Shown here one piece after another: positions 44,104-51,329 of a stretch of 64,000 nucleotides of DNA. Below the pieces are notes generated by a model that worked only from the letters and a program-made list of their open reading frames with translations, was not told the DNA's origin and did not search any database. Origin of the DNA: an uncultured Planctomycetaceae bacterium. Lineage in GTDB: Bacteria > Planctomycetota > Planctomycetia > Pirellulales > Thermoguttaceae. Within the stretch, counting starts at the first letter, position 1. Every line of letters starts with the position of its first letter. The stretch is taken from the NCBI GenBank assembly GCA_964444795.1, contig CAYUIQ010000010.1:8047-72046 (forward strand). The letters run 5' to 3'. The translations under genes and the position numbers were made by a program.

Positions 44104-44712
44104 ATGGATCCCATCGAACAACTGACCGCGCGGCAGAAGAAGGTTTATCTGTTCATCCGCGAGAAGATCCGCTCGCGGGGATACGGGCCGACGGTCCGCG
44201 AGATCGGCACTCAATTCAAGATCCGCTCGCCCAACGGCGTGATGTGCCACCTCAAGGCCCTGGAGCGCAAGGGGATGATCACGCGCGAGCCGAACATGTC
44301 GCGGGCCATCCAGTTGTCCACCGAGCCGGCCCATCTTCGCGGGCTGCCCCTGGCCGGACGCATCGCCGCCGGCGTCTTGCACGAAGCGATCGAACAGGAC
44401 GAGCGGGTCGAACTCGACGCCATGTTCGACCCCGAGAACAAGGACCTGTTCGTGTTGGAGGTCGACGGCGACTCGATGATCGACGACCAGATCGCCGACG
44501 GCGACTACGTGGTGATTCGCAAGCAGCGAACCGCCAGAAAGGGCCAGATCGTGGTCGCCTTGACCGACGAAAATGAAGCCACGCTCAAACGCTGGTTTCC
44601 CGAGAAGAACCGCATCCGCCTCGAGCCGGCCAACTCGCGGATGAAGCCGATCTACGTGAAGAACGCCAAGGTGATGGGCGTCGTGGTCGGCGTGGTGCGG
44701 AAGGTGCAGTGA
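44104..44712 (+). CDS. lexA: LexA repressor (SOS regulator, S24 peptidase)
   Basis: Winged-helix N-terminus LTARQKKVYLFIREKIRSRGYGPTVREIG, Ala-Gly cleavage site (GRIAAGVL), catalytic region GDSMIDDQI...KGQIVVAL. Confidence 0.9.
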   Translation: MDPIEQLTARQKKVYLFIREKIRSRGYGPTVREIGTQFKIRSPNGVMCHLKALERKGMITREPNMSRAIQLSTEPAHLRGLPLAGRIAAGVLHEAIEQDERVELDAMFDPENKDLFVLEVDGDSMIDDQIADGDYVVIRKQRTARKGQIVVALTDENEATLKRWFPEKNRIRLEPANSRMKPIYVKNAKVMGVVVGVVRKVQ

Positions 44713-44893
44713 GTTTTCGCACGGCCCGCCATTCCCCCCAAAAGCATAAACGAGTTGGCGGCCGGCGAAGGCTTGCTCCGAGCCTTTTCACCGTGGTACA
44801 ATACCCCCTGTCGTTGGCGAGGCCAGGACGACGGAGACTCCATAGCCCCGCAGCCACTCCGCTGGTCAGTGTGTTCGTTAGCGCGGTGAGACG

Positions 44894-45376
44894 ATGAAAC
44901 TAAGACTCGCGATCGTTGCGTGCCTCGTGCTGGCAGTCTTTGGCCTCATTCTCCTTGCCGTGTCTCGCAGTCGGCCTTCACCGGGCGTTGCCTATCACAA
45001 CGGCGTTCTCCAGCAGTGTCTGTCAGAGGAGGTGGAGATTCTGATCAAGTGCAAGGACCCCAGCACACGAGAGGCCTTCTCGAAGACCGTTTCGGTAACG
45101 GAGAAGGACAGGACGGTGTGGCTGCTTGACCATCTCAGGATCAATAGACCACCCGCCAAAGAAGGAATGTTTCACCACTGCCGGGGGCATCTCGTCATCG
45201 AAATCAAGACGCCGGAGCATACGCACACGACGCAATACGACCATGGCGAGGGAATATATCCCATCAGTGATGGCACGCACCGCGTAGGGTTTGCCTTGTT
45301 GGAGCAGGCCGCGTGTTCGGAACTCAACGAGTACTTCCGTTCGCTAGGTTTCACTGATGAGGATCTTGGCATATAG
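44894..45376 (+). CDS. hypothetical membrane-anchored protein
   Basis: 160 aa with an N-terminal TM anchor (MKLRLAIVACLVLAVFGLILLAV). No family recognised. It lies in the lower-GC patch. Confidence 0.55.
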   Translation: MKLRLAIVACLVLAVFGLILLAVSRSRPSPGVAYHNGVLQQCLSEEVEILIKCKDPSTREAFSKTVSVTEKDRTVWLLDHLRINRPPAKEGMFHHCRGHLVIEIKTPEHTHTTQYDHGEGIYPISDGTHRVGFALLEQAACSELNEYFRSLGFTDEDLGI

Positions 45377-45468
45377 AGGGCTAACCGGCGGATGCACCAG
45401 TCGCCAAGTGCCAGTGGCACCCAGCGCGCGACGCCGAATGAATGAAAACGGCCGGATGGCCGAACCAC

Positions 45469-45490
45469 GGCTTAACCCCAACCTGGGAAG
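45469..45490 (+). repeat. 22-bp direct repeat, copy 1 (ggcttaaccccaacctgggaag)
   Basis: Exact match to 46594-46615. It is preceded at 45408-45422 by gtgccagtggcaccc, which also ends the right arm of the element at 46547-46593. Confidence 0.85.
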
Positions 45491-45549
45491 CCACCTGCCT
45501 CGCGAATTCTCGGCAGCCGATAAATCAGATAGTCCTGCGAGTAAAGAGT

Positions 45550-46395
45550 ATGGACATGTTTGAACAGCTTGAAGACATCAACACTCGACCTGAACCGTTT
45601 GAGTGCTATACGGCGGCAGATCTGTGGACCGACAATCATACCTCGGGGCAGATGCTCGCCTGCCATCTCAACGCCGATATCGATGTGTCCTCTCGTCGAG
45701 TTGAGTTCATCGACCAATCCGTTGCATGGATCGGCTCGCATTTTGATGTCGGCACTGGTACCCGGATTGCCGATTTCGGCTGCGGCCCCGGACTCTACGC
45801 AAACCGGCTCGCCATGCTCGGTGCCAGCGTAACGGGCATTGATTTCTCAAAACGCTCGATCAAGCACGCACGCACAGTTGCCGCGGAGGAGGGATTGACG
45901 GCCGCATACGTTAACCAGAATTACCTGGAATTCGAAACCGAAGATCGGTTCGACATCATCCTGATGATTATGTGCGACTTCTGTGCCCTCAGCCCCGCGC
46001 AGCGCATGACTATGCTGGAGAAGTTCCGGGCCCTTCTGGCGTCAGGAGGCTCAGTCCTGCTCGACGTCTATTCCGTGAATGCTCTCGAACAACGTGAGGA
46101 GGCCGTCTCCTACGAGGAGAACCTGCTCAATGGATTCTGGTCACCCGAGAAGTACTACGGTTTCCTGAACACCTTTAAGTACGACGACGTCGGCGTGGTC
46201 TTGGACAAGTACACCGTAGTCGAGGCCAAGCGTACACGGACAGTCTATAACTGGCTCCAGCACTTCTCCCCGGGATCCCTGCGGAGCGAGTTCGAGAACG
46301 CGGGATTCGCACAACAAGAGTTCTACGGCAATGTGGCAGGGGCACCGTTTGCTGAGTCTGCTTCAGAATTCGCCATCGTGGGAAAGCGGAAATAA
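45550..46395 (+). CDS. class I SAM-dependent methyltransferase (small-molecule type)
   Basis: Motif I IADFGCGPGLYANRLAMLGASVTGIDFS with an acidic post-I residue. No (D/N)PP(Y/F) DNA-methyltransferase motif. ATG at 45550 (MDMFEQLED). Confidence 0.85.
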   Translation: MDMFEQLEDINTRPEPFECYTAADLWTDNHTSGQMLACHLNADIDVSSRRVEFIDQSVAWIGSHFDVGTGTRIADFGCGPGLYANRLAMLGASVTGIDFSKRSIKHARTVAAEEGLTAAYVNQNYLEFETEDRFDIILMIMCDFCALSPAQRMTMLEKFRALLASGGSVLLDVYSVNALEQREEAVSYEENLLNGFWSPEKYYGFLNTFKYDDVGVVLDKYTVVEAKRTRTVYNWLQHFSPGSLRSEFENAGFAQQEFYGNVAGAPFAESASEFAIVGKRK

Positions 46396-46432
46396 CCGTC
46401 ACAGAACAAGGCAATGAACCTGACAGAGCGCC

Positions 46433-46593
46433 GGGTGCCACTGGCATTCTGCCAGTGCTTTCTGGATTCGTAGCTTGCATATTGCGCGACCGGGAAAGCT
46501 CGACGCGAGAATCGGCCGCGCGGATCGTTGCTTGGTTACTTCCGGGTGCAAGCTACGAATCGTAAGAGCACTGGCAGAATGCCAGTGGCACCC
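46433..46593. repeat. MITE-like element with 47-bp imperfect terminal inverted repeats
   Basis: The left arm 46433-46479 and right arm 46547-46593 are reverse complements except for a 7-nt patch. Each arm carries an internal hairpin CACTGGCA-NNN-TGCCAGTG. It is immediately followed by direct-repeat copy 2. Confidence 0.75.
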
Positions 46594-46615
46594 GGCTTAA
46601 CCCCAACCTGGGAAG
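46594..46615 (+). repeat. 22-bp direct repeat, copy 2
   Basis: Exact match to 45469-45490. Confidence 0.85.
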
Positions 46616-46911
46616 TTACTTACGTCGCGCCTCCTGGGAAGGCGCTTTCGGAGATCATCTGCATGGCGCGCCCGGATATCCCGTCAGCGGTTTCCTGCCG
46701 GGGGGTAGGTAGCGAATTGGCGCGCACTTTCACGCCGAGTTATTCGCTGGGCGCTTTGCCGGTCGAAGGCACGTAAGGCGTTGTGGACTAGTGCTTCTTG
46801 TGGTATCGTCAGCGTTGATCCCTTACCTGAAGTGACTTACCATTACCCCTTACGAAGAGACCATCCAAGGTTCAACAATCAAAGGAACATCCCCTGGCAA
46901 AGGAGATACAG

Positions 46912-47538
46912 ATGGACGCGAAAGCGGAACTGCGTAAGGTGCTAGGATCCCAGACGAACGACAAAGCGGTACACGCTCAGGCAATCCTGAGCATCATCTC
47001 AGAAGTTGAATCTCGGGATGAAAAGATCGAGTTGCTTGACTACACCATCACAGACCTAGGAAAAGTCGAGAAGCATGAGCAAATTCTCTCGAACAAGGGC
47101 ATAGATCCCCAGCGATGGGACGACCTGAATTCCAAATTGCTGGTGATTGTCAACAATTATGTGCGCAACGCTTTCTTCAGCACAAAGAACAGCCAAGAGT
47201 TTGCCGCTGAACTCCTGCGAATTCTTGATTTCTTCGCTGACCCTGACGAGAAGGCCTTCTGCCTTGCTGTCGTTCTCTACACAACCAGTGTGGTTCCTTA
47301 CCACAATCTGCCTGGGGATGCTATCACGCTTACTGAGGATGAGTTCAAACAATTGATCCTCGCGAACAAGGACAAAAGCGAACTAATGCGCTACCTTGTG
47401 GAACTTCCGTTCTTCGACTGGACACAGGCCGCTTCGCAGGTCCTTCAGGTTATTGACGACTGCGGAGACAATAAGAAACTGCGCATCGCACTTCTTACCC
47501 TTTTTATGATGGCGAAGACGAATGCCGAGCGGAAGTAG
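46912..47538 (+). CDS. hypothetical all-helical protein (first gene of low-GC two-gene cassette)
   Basis: 208-aa ORF with an AAGGAG SD 8 nt upstream of the ATG. GC is 26/60 in line 47101-47160. No motif recognised. Confidence 0.65.
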   Translation: MDAKAELRKVLGSQTNDKAVHAQAILSIISEVESRDEKIELLDYTITDLGKVEKHEQILSNKGIDPQRWDDLNSKLLVIVNNYVRNAFFSTKNSQEFAAELLRILDFFADPDEKAFCLAVVLYTTSVVPYHNLPGDAITLTEDEFKQLILANKDKSELMRYLVELPFFDWTQAASQVLQVIDDCGDNKKLRIALLTLFMMAKTNAERK

Positions 47539-47548
47539 GAGGAAGCAG

Positions 47549-48094
47549 ATGCAGATTATGCTGCTGGGAGATATGATGGGAACAAAGTCACTCCTCCTCT
47601 CGGGCGCGTCTGGGCCCCTTGAAGAGAAATACACTGCCGTCACTAAGTGCTTCGCAAACTGCTACCGCATGTACCACCTGAGAAGTAGAAGCATGTTCTG
47701 TCTGACGTTCAGCGATTCTGTTATTGTGGTGTGGGATGACTTCAACGAGGGCCGGAGATTCTGCCATCTCTTCGCACGTGCGCTATATCAACAGTTCTCT
47801 ATCGCCCACATAGACGCCAGAGTGTTCGTCGACCAGGGAGATGTTGTTTCCTCTGTTGACAACAGGTTCGGGCTTTACGCTGGCATTGAATCACGCTTCC
47901 TCTCGTTCTCACCGATCTCGTTCGGGGCTTGGTCAGTATTCGGGGGAGAGGAGGCGCATTTTCTTCCGGGAGTGTATGTAGGGGAGGACCTTAGTCGGCA
48001 CCTCTCAGCACCTGTCGGAATGACGTTCTCGAGAGTGTCGTGCATCGTAGGCAAATTTGCATATCGTCGTATGACTGGAGAAGGGATTTTGTAG
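47549..48094 (+). CDS. stand-alone minimal nucleotidyl-cyclase-like (class III cyclase / GGDEF-type palm) protein, tentative
   Basis: ATG 47549 has a strong AGGAGG SD 6 nt upstream that overlaps the upstream stop. The order of motifs matches the cyclase homology domain: IMLLGDMMGTKSL (cf. F.DI.GFT.L), CLTFSDSVIVVW (cf. IGDA.MAVF), IDARVFVDQGDVV (cf. lRiGih.G.vv). The product call is pattern-based only. Confidence 0.55.
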   Translation: MQIMLLGDMMGTKSLLLSGASGPLEEKYTAVTKCFANCYRMYHLRSRSMFCLTFSDSVIVVWDDFNEGRRFCHLFARALYQQFSIAHIDARVFVDQGDVVSSVDNRFGLYAGIESRFLSFSPISFGAWSVFGGEEAHFLPGVYVGEDLSRHLSAPVGMTFSRVSCIVGKFAYRRMTGEGIL

Positions 48095-48122
48095 CAGGAA
48101 GAAGTCAGGCATTCAGCCAGGT

Positions 48123-48145
48123 AAGTCAGGCACTACGTGCCTGAC
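48123..48145. repeat. perfect hairpin AGTCAGGCAC-TAC-GTGCCTGACT
   Basis: 10-bp stem and 3-nt loop in a convergent intergenic region. The core GTCAGGCAC recurs at 48247-48269, with a half-site at 48103-48110. Confidence 0.8.
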
Positions 48146-48246
48146 TCCCCGGGTCATACATGGTATGCTACGGCCATGACTGACTACCAACGCTATTTCG
48201 TCGCGGCCGAAACGTACTCCTTCGCGCTCGTAACGGAGGAACAGGT

Positions 48247-48269
48247 GGTCAGGCACGGAGTGCCTGACC
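48247..48269. repeat. perfect hairpin GGTCAGGCAC-GGA-GTGCCTGACC
   Basis: Second copy of the same hairpin family, 57 nt downstream of the stop of the response-regulator gene. Confidence 0.8.
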
Positions 48270-48325
48270 TACGGCTGAAATCAACGCGTAGCTTCGCCGC
48301 CCGGTGAACTTGGACGTTACACGCG

Positions 48326-49915
48326 TTACGACGCCTTCTCCATCGCCGCCGCGGCGTGGAGCTTGTTGTAGAGCGTTTTGAGGCTGATGCCCAACTGCTG
48401 GGCCGCCTTGGGCTTGCTGCCTTCGTTATCCTCCAGGGCCAGATGGATGGCCCGGATTTCCATCTCGCGCAAGGTCCCCGTGGGCTCGTCCGCGGCAACT
48501 CCCCGCAGCCGGCGGGTGGCGAATCGCTCGGGCAGATCCTCTGGACCGATCGGCAGCCGCTCGCCGAGAATCATCGCGTGCTCGATCACGTTGGCCAGTT
48601 CGCGGACGTTGCCCGGCCAGCAATGATTTGACAGGGCCCCCAGCGCGGCCGGGGTGAAGACCTCCGTTCGGTCGGCTATCTCGGGACGGAATCGGGCGGC
48701 CAGATGCCGGGCCAGCACGCCGATGTCCTCGGGCCGCTGGCGCAACGGCGGCAACTGGATCTCGAACGTATTGACGCGGAACCAGAGATCCTCGCGAAAC
48801 TCCTCCTGCTGGACCATCTCCTCGAGGTTGCGATGCGTGGCACAAACCACCCGCACGTCGCAACGAAACGACTCGTTATCGCCCACGCGCCGAATCTCGC
48901 CGCTTTCCAAGAATCGCAGCAACTTGGCCTGCACGGCCTTGGGCAGTTCGCCGATTTCGTCCAAAAAGAGCGTGCCGCCACTGGCCACTTCGAACAGGCC
49001 CGTGCGATGTTCGTCGGCGCCGGTGAAACTTCCCTTGCGATGGCCGAACAGTTCGCTTTCGATCAGATTCTCGGGCAGACCGCCGCAATTGACGGCGACC
49101 ATCGGGGCGTCGGCCCTGGGCCCGCGGTCGTGCAGCGCCCGGGCGACCAGTTCCTTGCCGGTGCCCGTCTCGCCCAAGATCAGCACGGTCGAATCGGCGG
49201 GAGCCACCTTGGCGATGAGCCGGTCGACGCGTTGCATAGCCGGGCTGTCGCCGATCAGTTCCGAAGTGCCCTCGGCTCGCTCCAATCGCCCCCGGACCGC
49301 CCGGTACTTGTTGGTCAACTCGCGCCGCTCGGCCACGCGCCGCAGCAAAGCTTCCAACTCGGCCAGCCGGCAGGGCTTGGTCAGATAGTCGAACGCCCCA
49401 TGGCGCAGCGCCGCCACGGCCGTTTTCAGCGACGACTTGCCGGTCAGCACGATGCTGTCGGCCTCGGGAGCCAACTCCTTGGCCTTGGCGATCACCTCGA
49501 TGCCACCCATTCCCGGCATGTCCAGATCGACCAGCAGGCAGTCGTACGTATTGCGTTGCATGGCGGCCACGGCGGTCAGCCCGTCGGGACAGACCGTGAC
49601 TTCGTGTCCCATGCGGGGCAGTTCGAGGCTCATCAACTGTTGCAGCGACGGCTCGTCGTCGGCAAACAGGAGCTTGAGTCGGCTAGGCGGCTTGGTACTG
49701 ATTTCTGCTCTCCCTCGGTTCGATTTCCAAAGGCAGCCGAACCCGGAACGTGGCTCCCTGGCCCGGTCCCGAACTGGACGCCTCGATCTCCCCCCCGTGA
49801 TCGGCAACGATGCGATAGCTAATCGACAGCCCCAACCCGGTACCTTGTCCCGAAGGCTGTCCCGAGCGGCGGCGAGTGAAGAACGGCTCGAACAAGTGCT
49901 CCAGCACGTCGGCAT
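48326..49915 (-). CDS. sigma-54-dependent response regulator (NtrC family: REC-AAA+-Fis HTH)
   Basis: REC LLFADDEPSL...DCLLVDLDMPGMGG; AAA+ VLILGETGTGKELVARALH and GSFTGA; C-terminal AAQQLGISLKTLYNKL. The true start is unresolved (see findings); 49915 is the only canonical start in frame. Confidence 0.85.
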   Translation of the reverse strand: MPTCWSTCSSRSSLAAARDSLRDKVPGWGCRLAIASLPITGGRSRRPVRDRAREPRSGFGCLWKSNRGRAEISTKPPSRLKLLFADDEPSLQQLMSLELPRMGHEVTVCPDGLTAVAAMQRNTYDCLLVDLDMPGMGGIEVIAKAKELAPEADSIVLTGKSSLKTAVAALRHGAFDYLTKPCRLAELEALLRRVAERRELTNKYRAVRGRLERAEGTSELIGDSPAMQRVDRLIAKVAPADSTVLILGETGTGKELVARALHDRGPRADAPMVAVNCGGLPENLIESELFGHRKGSFTGADEHRTGLFEVASGGTLFLDEIGELPKAVQAKLLRFLESGEIRRVGDNESFRCDVRVVCATHRNLEEMVQQEEFREDLWFRVNTFEIQLPPLRQRPEDIGVLARHLAARFRPEIADRTEVFTPAALGALSNHCWPGNVRELANVIEHAMILGERLPIGPEDLPERFATRRLRGVAADEPTGTLREMEIRAIHLALEDNEGSKPKAAQQLGISLKTLYNKLHAAAAMEKAS

Positions 49916-51329
49916 CCATGCCGCACCCGTCGTCGGTAAAGATCAACTGGGCCGCTTCGCCGCGGCGCGCCAGTTCGATCCGTACGGTTCCGCCCGCGTC
50001 GAGACTGTCCAGGGCGTTGGTCAACAGGTTGAGCACGACCTGGCGGATCTCTTGCGGGTTGATCGTCGCGACCAGCGGTTCGCCGTCGGCCAAGTCCACG
50101 TTTTTCTGCTGATAGCGGCCGAGATGGGAGACCATCTCGATCACCTCGACCATCAGCCCGCGCAAGTCGACCCGCTGGCGAGTCACCGGTCCGGTTCGCG
50201 AGAAGTCCAACAGCTTCTCGGTAATCTCCTTGCAGCGAAACGCCTCGCTATGGATCATCGCCAGGTAGTCGGCAATGACGGCGTGTCGCGGATCGTCGCT
50301 GGCGATGAATTTCTCGTCGAGCAATTCGCCGACGCGGCCTTGCAGCGATTCGCTGCACATGGCGATCGAAGCCAGGGGATTGTTGATTTCGTGGGCCACG
50401 CCGGCGGCCAGGAACCCCACGCTGGCAAGTTGCTCGTTGCGGATGACTTGCTTGGTTCGCTGGCGGACCTGCTGGTCGAGATCGTCGCGGATCGCGCGGA
50501 ATCGAGTCGTCATGTCGTTCATCGCTCGGGCGAGTTCGCCCATCTCGTCTTCGGCGTCGACGGTGATGCGGTAATCGAACTGGCCGGCCGCGACCCGCCG
50601 CGACCCGCGGATTAGCGTACGCAACGGCCGCAAGACCCACTGAACGGATAGCCGGATGAAGAGCAGGAAGATCAGCGCCGCGGCGATGCTGGCCACCCAC
50701 GCCCCGACGATCAGGGTGCGATACTGGGTGCGGACCCCGGCGGCAAATCCGCCGATCGTGCGATGCAAGTGGCTGGGCAAGTCGGCCCCCAGCGTCTGAA
50801 GTTCTGCCAGTTGTTCATCGACCCGCCGCAGCGTCGTCGCCTGCCCCATCCCATGGTCGGCGCCGATGGTCCTCTCGACCTCGGCCAACGTCGCTTCGAT
50901 CTTGTGGACCGTTTGCCATTCCGGGCGGTTGTCGGCAATTTGTGAATCGTCCCGGACCTTCTGCGCCAGCTTCTCGCGGTATGCCTGGAACGTTTCCCGC
51001 GTGGCCTCGACTTCATCGGCAAACTGTCCGGCGAGCGCTGCGGCCTGATCGATCTCTTGCATCGGCCGGATCTGTTGCCACTGCCGAATCTGGGCCAGCG
51101 TCACCTGCATGTCGGCGACGCGCCGGTTCATCTGGGCCGCCAGCGGAAGCTCCGAACTGCGCCAACTGAGGCTTTTAACCAGACTCCGGTAGGCGTAGAA
51201 GCCGTAGAGCCCCGCGCCGGTCAAGGTGGCCACCACCGCCAGCAAGAGCCAGAAGCCGAGAATGAGCTTATATCGGATGGGCCATTTCGACAGCACGGCG
51301 ACCTCCATGTCGCTCGGTCGATTTCGCAA
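49683..51329 (-). CDS. sensor histidine kinase (2 TM, HAMP, HisKA, HATPase)
   Basis: HAMP LRPLRTLIRGSRRVAAGQFDYRI...MGELARAMNDM; H-box AAGVAHEINNPLASI; G-box GTGLGLSISYRIVADHGG. An alternative ATG is at 51308. Confidence 0.85.
   Translation of the reverse strand: MRNRPSDMEVAVLSKWPIRYKLILGFWLLLAVVATLTGAGLYGFYAYRSLVKSLSWRSSELPLAAQMNRRVADMQVTLAQIRQWQQIRPMQEIDQAAALAGQFADEVEATRETFQAYREKLAQKVRDDSQIADNRPEWQTVHKIEATLAEVERTIGADHGMGQATTLRRVDEQLAELQTLGADLPSHLHRTIGGFAAGVRTQYRTLIVGAWVASIAAALIFLLFIRLSVQWVLRPLRTLIRGSRRVAAGQFDYRITVDAEDEMGELARAMNDMTTRFRAIRDDLDQQVRQRTKQVIRNEQLASVGFLAAGVAHEINNPLASIAMCSESLQGRVGELLDEKFIASDDPRHAVIADYLAMIHSEAFRCKEITEKLLDFSRTGPVTRQRVDLRGLMVEVIEMVSHLGRYQQKNVDLADGEPLVATINPQEIRQVVLNLLTNALDSLDAGGTVRIELARRGEAAQLIFTDDGCGMDADVLEHLFEPFFTRRRSGQPSGQGTGLGLSISYRIVADHGGEIEASSSGPGQGATFRVRLPLEIEPRESRNQYQAA

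Follow-up and report, generated by a model that had tools for sequence, protein, structure and literature searches.

We analyzed a 64,000-nucleotide stretch of DNA from an uncultured Planctomycetaceae bacterium (the window), in which two adjacent genes, A and B (Table 1), raise the question of whether a small nucleotidyl-cyclase-like protein and the protein encoded directly upstream of it constitute a signaling or defense pair.

Layout and base composition of the gene pair

The first-pass annotation had described two closely coupled genes, with the TAG stop codon of the first overlapping an AGGAGG Shine-Dalgarno sequence for the ATG of the second, and the sequence bears this out: the stop codon of A occupies positions 47536-47538 and the AGGAGG positions 47537-47542, with a spacing of 6 nt to the start of B. 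An alternative ATG for B at 47522 makes a 190-aa reading possible; we favor 47549 because the homologues begin at MQIMLLGD. Across relatives, the gap between A and B ranges from -8 to +14 nt, with 4-nt ATGA overlaps in loci L005, L014, and L017. Both are genuine coding genes under purifying selection, with a dN/dS of ~0.115 for each compared to the closest relative (L025), and the divergence of A and that of B track each other across relatives.

Table 1 Coordinates of the features discussed, numbered from the first base of the window
Feature	Coordinates	Strand	Description
Gene A	46912..47538	+	ORF, 208 aa; acidic, soluble orphan protein; partner located 5' of B
Gene B	47549..48094	+	ORF, 181 aa; predicted stand-alone minimal class III cyclase-homology-domain fold
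A/B junction	47536..47551	+	Stop codon TAG of A, overlapping AGGAGG Shine-Dalgarno sequence, start codon ATG of B
Hairpin	48117..48153	+	23 nt past the stop codon of B; 17-nt arms and 3-nt loop; no T-run

The hairpin downstream of B is possibly the transcript end. Its core is present in a second copy at 48248-48272, as found in a repeat search. A consensus scan did not score the hairpin as an intrinsic terminator, and on the forward strand it gave no convincing candidate for either a sigma-70 promoter or such a terminator. No Rfam families were found between 44000 and 49000. The repeats that surround the pair were also considered as parts of an integron cassette, a reading set aside when by-eye inspection found no attC-like features.

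The pair had also been reported to sit in a patch of lower GC content than its flanks. This is the case (0.507 for the cassette and 0.622 elsewhere in the window), and the patch is broader than first described. GC content lies at 0.49-0.54 along the pair and at 0.62-0.67 in the flanks; the low-GC patch begins near 44750 and takes in two more genes, one for a SAM methyltransferase and one an orphan ORF of 160 aa. Of 8 independent loci, 7 have a cassette whose GC content is 4-21 points below that of its flanks, a mark of horizontal acquisition. Relatives were found neither in phage and plasmid collections by tblastn nor in IMG/VR by pattern scans, and the cassette accordingly bears no sign of phage or plasmid carriage.

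Predicted fold and active site of B

We modeled B with AlphaFold using an alignment of 14 sequences. The model (pLDDT 81.1, pTM 0.79) was compared to the PDB with Foldseek, and all of the top 50 matches were class III adenylyl or guanylyl cyclase catalytic domains, with a probability of 1.00, E values from 4e-6 to 8e-5, and TM scores of 0.5-0.66 over the full length. The alignments spanned ~181-210 columns and the best TM score was 0.66. A cyclase-like palm fold had been proposed for B from its motifs, and the exclusive match to class III domains among the top 50 PDB structures supports that proposal. Giant-virus cyclase-domain proteins in BFVD were matched as well. The secondary structure of the model runs beta1-alpha1-alpha2-beta2-beta3-alpha3-beta4, followed by alpha4-beta-alpha-beta-beta; alpha4 and the arm region are of low confidence (pLDDT 47-59, residues 101-130). 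A first AlphaFold run with 6 close sequences had a pLDDT of 53 and meaningless Foldseek matches, and was discarded for the 14-sequence run.

In this model, B folds as an entire catalytic domain of a class III nucleotidyl cyclase. It shares the whole-domain fold of the class III cyclases (CHD, PF00211), in particular of minimal bacterial enzymes such as Mycobacterium avium Ma1120 (4WP3/4WP9) and M. tuberculosis Rv1900c (1YBT), with the same order of secondary-structure elements, a similar size (~165-200 aa), an Asp at the end of beta1, an Asp in the beta2-beta3 hairpin, and an Arg at the start of beta4. However, we detected no sequence-profile similarity between the two. B matched nothing in Pfam, NCBIfam, PADLOC, or PHROGs; none of the 23 family members had a match in Pfam, PADLOC, or NCBIfam; PF00211 failed to match any of the 23 at E<=5; and a B profile searched against PDB sequences found no cyclase or any other protein. 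The 14-sequence structure prediction recovered a fold that these profile methods miss. We conclude that B represents a new, very divergent family with the cyclase fold and that, together with A, it constitutes a new two-gene architecture, which is probably a conflict module.

We next considered the active site. The four motifs that the first-pass annotation had quoted for B, and the two aspartates D8 and D56, are present as it wrote them. In the model, D8 closes strand 2-9 and D56 sits between strands 49-54 and 57-62, and both are conserved among homologues, as that reading of B had called for: D8 in 21/21 and D56 in 22/22 of the distinct family members covering each site. The Arg of beta4 is R91 (22/22), and the loop after beta1 carries G11 (22/22), T12 (20/22), and K13 (19/22). 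The two aspartates are 48 residues apart; in PycC the spacing is 44 (D102/D146) (PMC11224242). We also aligned the B family to 5 cyclase sequences (4 PDB-derived and 1 consensus) with hhalign. D8 and D56 were placed onto the metal-binding aspartates of the cyclases in an alignment that by itself is non-significant (probability 2.7%, P=0.017) and is unreliable past beta4, and we relied on it solely to set D8, D56, and R91 in register. B retains the two predicted metal-binding Asp residues, along with the Arg of beta4 and the G-T-K segment of the phosphate loop that follows beta1.

Other features of the class III active site are missing. On helix alpha4, class III cyclases carry an Asn and an Arg for the transition state, canonically N-x-x-x-R. 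The fourth quoted motif is the one at alpha4; its topological position is right, but the Asn/Arg pair is missing. Columns 122-138 of the B family read P-[VI]-S-x-[AG]-x-W-S-V-F-x-[AG]-E-x-x-H-F and hold no conserved Asn or Arg across 22 sequences, in a region where the exact register is uncertain (model pLDDT 47-70). Four residues ahead of the second Asp, adenylyl cyclases have a base-specifying Lys and guanylyl cyclases a Glu, whereas position 52 of the B family is hydrophobic and variable (L/Y/F/M/A/C). In addition, the hairpin motif is F-S-D-S in B and (I/L)-G-D in class III cyclases, the loop after beta1 is G-T-K rather than G-F-T, and the arm region, which is poorly modeled, is unlike theirs. 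Because the Asn/Arg pair and the base-specifying residue are missing, B may not be a cyclase chemically, or may be inactive.

Distribution, partner protein, and gene neighborhoods

The B family is very sparse: 1.84 billion representative proteins contain ~19 clusters of it, and it occurs in 1 of 185,579 species genomes. That A and B should co-occur outside this genome had been anticipated, and in every locus that we inspected, B is immediately preceded by a homologue of A, down to ~31-35% identity (the window, L003/4, L005, L009/10, L012/13, L014/15, L017-19, L021, L023/24, L025/26, and two JGI contigs). The two genes are inherited together as a closely coupled unit. In a single case (L006/L007), an IS cuts B off at its FSDS motif and leaves A untouched. 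A 98-aa truncated B in L001/L002 proved to be a gene-calling artefact, as its DNA is identical to that of L003/L004 with the intact gene.

Like B, A had no match in Pfam, NCBIfam, PADLOC, or PHROGs, and a profile search against PDB sequences was also without a match. Its homologues comprise 12 close clusters and distant ones upstream of distant B genes. A is acidic, with a pI of ~5 (5.0-5.8 in the family), and B is near neutral. The description of A as a soluble protein without TM or TIR domains stands: no transmembrane segment was found (the top Kyte-Doolittle 19-residue mean is 1.26, and <=1.27 across the family), and the Pfam scan turned up neither TIR nor any other domain. The first-pass annotation had also called A all-helical, which is a tentative call at most: a Chou-Fasman estimate, too crude to decide it, puts helix at ~47% and strand at ~29%. 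Domain scans at the sequence level found no HTH, RHH, or AbrB domain, and family scans no nuclease, CARF/SAVED, or cNMP-binding signature. The invariant residues are mainly Gly, Pro, and hydrophobic, with no catalytic set; Tyr130 and Tyr161 are near-invariant and lie in the conserved loops PY.LPG and Y..(L)PF. One homologue, P0016, gave a weak match (E 5.5e-5) to a CARF-HEPN model, at its HEPN end. HEPN identity was rejected as a trait of the family, as 12 of 13 members were unmatched and there is no conserved Rx4-6H motif.

The gene neighborhood is what makes A and B candidates for a signaling or defense role. In an anecdotal sample of ~10 loci, the cassette often adjoins genes for restriction-modification, TIR proteins, toxin-antitoxin pairs, or integrases, or an IS. 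One neighborhood has integrase, XRE, MNT-HEPN, and PIN genes, another an N6_N4 methyltransferase and an Mrr-like nuclease, another DUF4145 and an IS, and another DUF4365-TPR. TIR proteins are found near the cassette at some loci, and an MNT-HEPN pair adjoins it in L014/L015. The neighbors in L017 and L024 are housekeeping genes. A check of the pair against PADLOC, which the first-pass annotation had called for, matched no model, including the Pycsar cyclase models.

Possible functions and known two-gene systems

We tentatively favor, at somewhat less than even confidence, the reading that the pair is a mobile conflict module made up of the two proteins, of an abortive-infection or toxin-antitoxin-like kind. 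This reading draws on the cyclase fold, the retained active-site residues, and the pairing of A and B in every inspected locus; on an order and coupling like that of an antitoxin followed by a toxin, with short gaps or overlaps, an acidic A, and a near-neutral B; and on the low-GC foreign origin and conflict-type neighbors. As in toxin-antitoxin systems, the pair is bicistronic, coupled, and co-inherited on mobile or accessory DNA. The single case of an IS-cut B beside an intact A would be tolerated if B were the harmful component. In such a module, A would be produced just ahead of B in equal amounts, and would bind B and keep it in check as an antitoxin or sensor. B would bind an NTP with two metal ions and carry out nucleotidyl transfer or cyclization, with family-specific residues (candidates are K13, R45, R47, R70, R116, E134, and H137) replacing the missing Asn and Arg of alpha4. 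A phage or mobile element that disturbed A would leave B active, and active B could arrest growth via NTP consumption or the build-up of a nucleotide product. Several observations sit against a conflict module. Most type II antitoxins have a DNA-binding domain, whereas A has none that is detectable and is bigger than B; the Asn/Arg and base-specifying residues are missing from B; and two loci have housekeeping flanks. A more novel reading is that the pair is a previously overlooked immune or toxin module whose enzyme belongs to a new cyclase-homology-fold branch, which would have different chemistry since it is without the canonical Asn/Arg and base-specifying residues, with A as a new regulator or effector fold or family. 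We regard this as rather unlikely. B might then produce a non-canonical nucleotide signal, nucleotidylate a target, or depend on A to complete its catalysis in trans.

An immune system of signal and effector has precedents in Pycsar (PMC11224242) and Panoptes (PMC12657218). Here B would make a cyclic nucleotide, either as a signal on infection or as a constitutive decoy or inhibitory molecule, and A would be the receptor or effector that responds to its rise or depletion. The cyclase fold with an intact predicted metal site, the two-gene operon in defense-like neighborhoods, and the weak HEPN-end match of P0016 are consistent with such a system. However, that match is confined to 1 of 13 A members and Rx4-6H is not conserved, no signature of a TM, TIR, nuclease, CARF/SAVED, or cNMP-binding protein is seen in A, whose mostly Gly, Pro, and hydrophobic invariant residues include no catalytic set, and the PADLOC Pycsar cyclase models miss B; we consider this alternative unlikely. 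It is highly improbable, in our estimate, that the two proteins are instead enzyme and substrate, as in the type VII toxin-antitoxin pair MntA-HepT, with B nucleotidylating A (for example at Tyr130 or Tyr161) and so keeping it inactive. The tight coupling of the pair, a palm-type two-metal site without cyclase-specific residues, and the near-invariant tyrosines would fit, and the MNT-HEPN pair adjoining the cassette in L014/L015 indicates that the same logic occurs in such islands. Yet we know of no class III cyclase-fold enzyme that modifies proteins, A shows no toxin motif, and an IS knock-out of B beside an intact A exists that, under this model, should be harmful.

Two further alternatives place the pair outside of conflict or B outside of catalysis. 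B could be a small cAMP- or cGMP-type cyclase with A as its regulatory subunit, serving ordinary accessory cNMP signaling of the host. Its cyclase fold, the housekeeping neighbors at two loci, and the failure of known defense models to match are all compatible with this role, which we nevertheless judge very unlikely given the sparse and patchy family, the foreign GC content, the variable flanks that often carry restriction-modification, toxin-antitoxin, TIR, or integrase genes, and the loss of the purine-specifying residues. Finally, B could be a catalytically dead pseudo-cyclase that is only a scaffold or binding partner for A, as the missing alpha4 Asn/Arg pair, the missing Lys/Glu specificity residue, and the failure of cyclase profiles to recognize B might suggest. 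Dead enzymes, however, usually lose metal-site, phosphate-loop, and Arg residues of the very kind that B has kept: at only ~30% identity, the family still shows little or no variation in the two Asp, the G-T-K loop, and the Arg of beta4. We rate this possibility as low as that of the enzyme-substrate pair.

To our knowledge, the only class III cyclase-fold enzymes in defense are those of Pycsar, with canonical motifs kept and TM or TIR effectors. Pycsar and the A/B pair are both two-gene operons in defense-type neighborhoods, each built around a class III-type cyclase that is minimal or stands alone, and in some Pycsar clades the partner gene is 5' of the cyclase (PMC13069673). Pycsar combines a pyrimidine cyclase, PycC, with a TM or TIR effector (PycTM or PycTIR), and PycC enzymes retain the class III catalytic motifs (PMC11224242). 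By contrast, B is without part of these motifs, A has neither TM nor TIR, and the PADLOC Pycsar models miss B and its 23 relatives; B is far more divergent than the Pycsar cyclases and was missed by every sequence profile tried. Panoptes, which uses decoy or inhibitory signaling, consists of a minimal palm-domain synthase, the minimal CRISPR polymerase mCpol, and a membrane effector (PMC12657218, PMC11974786). If the modeled fold reflects activity, B would likewise be a minimal palm-domain nucleotide synthase of ~180 aa with a single partner gene. However, B resembles class III cyclases and not Cas10/GGDEF palms, with F-S-D-S in its hairpin and no GGDD/GGDEF, and A is soluble and not a TM-beta or CARF-TM effector.

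The AbiE/MenAT and toxSAS pairs consist of an upstream antitoxin and a downstream nucleotide-utilizing toxin. They share with A and B their gene order, tight coupling, mobility, and location in toxin-antitoxin or defense islands, a likeness of logic only, and by analogy B would be the likely active component, as a nucleotide-binding enzyme with a two-metal site. Their enzymes have a Pol-beta NTase or RelA/SpoT fold, whereas B is predicted to have a class III cyclase palm, and no wHTH or other DNA-binding domain was detected in A. Were B active, it would show how the active site of a cyclase functions when the Asn/Arg pair is missing, widen the range of nucleotide-based conflict systems, and provide a function for two protein families that are without one. 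The cassette itself is found in several uncultured bacterial lineages.

Predicted fold and active site of protein B

Protein B, the candidate cyclase of the cassette, had no match in Pfam, NCBIfam, PADLOC or PHROGs. Its family profile found nothing among all PDB sequences, and 23 family members scanned one by one against the sequence libraries also gave no match. A first AlphaFold model, built from 6 close sequences, was discarded (pLDDT 53, with Foldseek matches that were noise). With distant relatives added to the alignment (14 sequences, identity down to 29%), a second model reached pLDDT 81.1 and pTM 0.79, and its top 50 Foldseek matches in the PDB were all catalytic domains of class III adenylyl or guanylyl cyclases (probability 1.00, E 4e-6 to 8e-5, TM up to 0.66), spanning essentially the whole of B. 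These included Ma1120, Rv1900c, Cya2, CyaC, photoactivated adenylyl cyclases and soluble guanylyl cyclase, and the closest were minimal bacterial class III cyclases. In a viral structure library the best matches include giant-virus proteins, one annotated with a guanylate cyclase domain. The predicted elements (beta1 2-9; helices 12-18 and 21-42; beta2 49-54; beta3 57-62; alpha3 65-85; beta4 90-98; a poorly modelled "arm" 99-123; alpha4 125-132; a strand at 141-145 and two C-terminal strands) follow the order of the cyclase homology domain (CHD). The model thus bears out the cyclase-type fold proposed in the first-pass annotation, and we regard this predicted fold assignment as solid. When 1.84 billion representative proteins were searched with the family profile, about 19 true clusters emerged, every member a stand-alone protein of 168-196 aa. 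Of 185,579 species-representative genomes, only one carries the family, a Candidatus Eisenbacteria MAG.

Both aspartates put forward earlier as candidate metal ligands proved to be conserved among 22 distinct family sequences with identities as low as ~30%: D8 in 21/21 (one sequence is N-terminally truncated) and D56 in 22/22. R91 and G11 are likewise invariant (22/22 each), T12 is present in 20/22 and K13 in 19/22. In the model, D8 ends beta1 and D56 lies in the beta2-beta3 hairpin, where class III cyclases have their two metal-binding aspartates. They are 48 residues apart, compared with 44 in PycC (D102/D146; PMC11224242). Profile-profile alignment with a small cyclase set (sequences from PDB alignments plus one consensus) matched D8 to the first Asp, D56 to the Asp of G-D and R91 to the Arg in the R-x-G-I-H-T-G strand, at a probability of 2.7% (P = 0.017) that is not significant alone. 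The alpha4 segment reads P122-x-S124-x-[AG]-x-W128-S129-V130-F-x-[AG]-E134-x-x-H137-F138 and holds no conserved Asn or Arg among the 22 sequences, in which the residue four before D56 is hydrophobic and variable, neither Lys nor Glu. Judged from the model and the conserved residues, B has the class III fold and keeps the half of the predicted active site that would handle metal and phosphate; the canonical Asn/Arg transition-state pair and the residue that specifies the base are missing from its sequence. Their roles may fall to residues that are invariant within this family: R45-S-R47-S ahead of beta2, E67-G-x-R70, R116, E134 and H137. B differs from class III cyclases, PycC included, in sequence profile, Asn/Arg pair and specificity residue, and we file it as a new, very divergent CHD-fold family, not as a member of PF00211, the Pfam class III cyclase family.

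Pairing of B with protein A

Both ORFs lie exactly where the first-pass annotation placed them, and the stop codon of A, as described there, overlaps the AGGAGG ahead of the B start. We place that start at 47549 and not at the upstream in-frame ATG (47522) because close homologues begin MQIMLLGD. A and B are real genes, and purifying selection acts on both: in comparison with the pair at locus L025 (81-83% identical), dN/dS is 0.115 for A and 0.115 for B.

An A homologue of 207-219 aa lies directly upstream of B at every locus with readable surroundings (the window and loci L003/L004, L005, L009-L011, L012/13, L014-16, L017-19, L021, L023/24 and L025/26), and gene calls without DNA give the same order on two JGI contigs. 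The two genes are spaced by -8 to +14 nt, and in three lineages they overlap at ATGA. Pairwise BLASTP shows that the distant upstream proteins are true homologues of A (34-39% identity, E 7e-44 to 2e-46), and A/B identities to the window pair drop in step: 83/81, 56/61, 50/35, 37/38, 34/31, 32/35 and 33/34%. Co-occurrence, on which the first-pass proposal depended, therefore extends beyond this genome, and on these comparisons we consider an obligate pairing solid. At L006 (1411-2567) and L007 (2549-2854), a DDE-family insertion sequence (DDE_Tnp_1) interrupts B at the FSDS metal-site motif, leaving roughly the first 57 residues; A (P0016) is intact, and the remainder of B was not found downstream. 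At L001 (2019-2315) and L002 (1823-2119), JGI gene calls recognise just the C-terminal 98 aa of B (P0019). We rejected a pseudogene here since the DNA is 100% identical to that of L003/L004, where a full 192-aa B is called; the short call is an annotation artefact.

The A family is acidic (pI 5.0-5.8), and a family-wide hydropathy check found no transmembrane segment. For A, described as all-helical in the first-pass annotation, a crude Chou-Fasman profile gave about 47% helix and 29% strand. Searches of Pfam, NCBIfam, PADLOC, PHROGs and the PDB sequences gave no match to A. Gly, Pro and hydrophobic residues make up most of its invariant positions (G12, P129, P134-G135, P166-F167), with nearly invariant polar or aromatic residues at Q23, W69, R103, Y130, Y161, Q179, D182 and R191; such a pattern speaks more for a role in binding or regulation than for an enzyme. 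Residues 15-112 of P0016 matched the PADLOC model CARF2--CARF_HEPN (E 5.5e-5, 20 bits) at positions 428-518 of 551, the HEPN end. We do not treat A as a HEPN protein because 12 other family members gave no such match and no Rx4-6H motif is conserved in the family.

Distribution and possible function

At 7 of 8 independent loci the GC of the cassette is 4-21 points lower than that of its flanks, and the flanks vary between loci. In Candidatus Eisenbacteria MAGs (L014 2576-7404, L015 318-5272) the pair comes right after a tyrosine integrase and is followed by a 93-aa ORF and an XRE HTH regulator, an MNT-HEPN (NTP_transf_2/HepT-like) pair and a PIN-domain pair, so that the cassette here sits in an island with an integrase and many toxin-antitoxin modules. 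Neighbours elsewhere include an N6_N4 DNA methyltransferase and an Mrr-like nuclease (L025), TIR-methyltransferase, trypsin-endonuclease, S8 protease and lipase genes (L005), a DUF1883-TIR protein (a JGI contig without DNA), DUF4145, IS, NERD and TatD (L006/7), DUF4365-TPR (L008), NrdDG and an N6_N4 methyltransferase (L001), and housekeeping genes (L017, L024). No relatives were found in plasmid, phage or IMG/VR collections. The distribution is typical of an accessory module that is rare, moves horizontally and tends to settle in islands of defence or toxin-antitoxin genes; drawn from about ten loci, the island association is suggestive, not statistical.

We tentatively prefer to read the pair as a toxin-antitoxin or abortive-infection-like module. 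The two-metal site of B would act on an NTP, making B the active, potentially harmful component; A, translated just before it, would bind B and either restrain it or sense. The order and coupling of the two genes, the acidity of A, the setting in islands and the inactivation of B by an IS fit this reading without proving it. By logic, the closest systems are Pycsar (PMC11224242; PMC13069673) and Panoptes (PMC12657218), and A could be a new kind of effector in a comparable signal-effector pair. That seems unlikely: Pycsar effectors are TM or TIR proteins and the Panoptes effector is a membrane protein, whereas A is none of these.

A cyclase with a regulatory subunit and no part in conflict is improbable, and we give little weight to B nucleotidylating A in the manner of MntA-HepT. 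A dead pseudo-cyclase is similarly doubtful, as its metal-site residues would hardly have stayed invariant. In one sub-variant, A might complete the active site of B in trans, because B keeps just those catalytic residues that belong to the C1-like half. PADLOC v2 (2023) has no model for A or B and we found no published description of such a pair; we take the two-gene architecture to be new, as suggested earlier. We rate A-B as a putative nucleotide-enzyme-based two-gene conflict module, a kind already known, in which the enzyme family of B and the orphan partner A are new.

The low-GC patch around the cassette

GC is 0.49-0.54 over the pair and 0.62-0.67 on either side (cassette 0.507, remainder of the window 0.622). 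The lower-GC patch noted at first is thus present over A-B; it is wider than then described, running from ~44750 to 48250.

Features of the low-GC patch and its borders in the window
Feature	Position	Strand	Remarks
lexA	44104-44712		Left border; canonical, LexA_DNA_bind + Peptidase_S24
Orphan ORF	44894-45376		160 aa, hydrophobic N-terminal segment; inside patch
Repeat copy	45398-45519		
Class I SAM methyltransferase	45442-46395		Inside patch
Repeat copy	46428-46480	-	
Repeat copy	46547-46644		
Gene A	46912-47538	+	208 aa
Stop codon of A	47536-47538	+	TAG
AGGAGG	47537-47542	+	6 nt before B ATG
Gene B	47549-48094	+	181 aa
Hairpin copies	48121-48145; 48248-48272		Just 3' of gene B
NtrC-type sigma-54 activator (response regulator) + sensor histidine kinase	48326-51329	-	Right flank; strand opposite to A-B

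The methyltransferase matches Methyltransf_25 (1e-17) and the PADLOC MADS mad2 methyltransferase region (9e-19), and its true start is probably downstream of the annotated one, near 45551 (MDMFEQ...). The orphan ORF had no family match, and neither gene was found with A-B at other loci. On the right flank, the mechanical ORFs 48326-49915 and 49683-51329 overlap by >200 nt; since the sigma-54 regulator has a 435-aa gene call in L012, the 529-aa ORF here probably begins too far upstream.

Within the window, the repeat family is confined to the patch. Its 14-nt core has 3 exact occurrences, where ~0.5 matches would be expected by chance (<=2 mismatches). Two copies form an inverted repeat (46430-46479/46547-46596; 50-nt arms, 92% complementary) between the methyltransferase gene and gene A, and one copy overlaps the annotated methyltransferase start. 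The family may represent a MITE/REP-like element, or it may mark the boundary of a cassette. The hairpin beyond gene B, GTCAGGCAC-NNN-GTGCCTGAC, was rejected as a classic intrinsic terminator, having no T-run; its two copies lie at the right edge of the patch.
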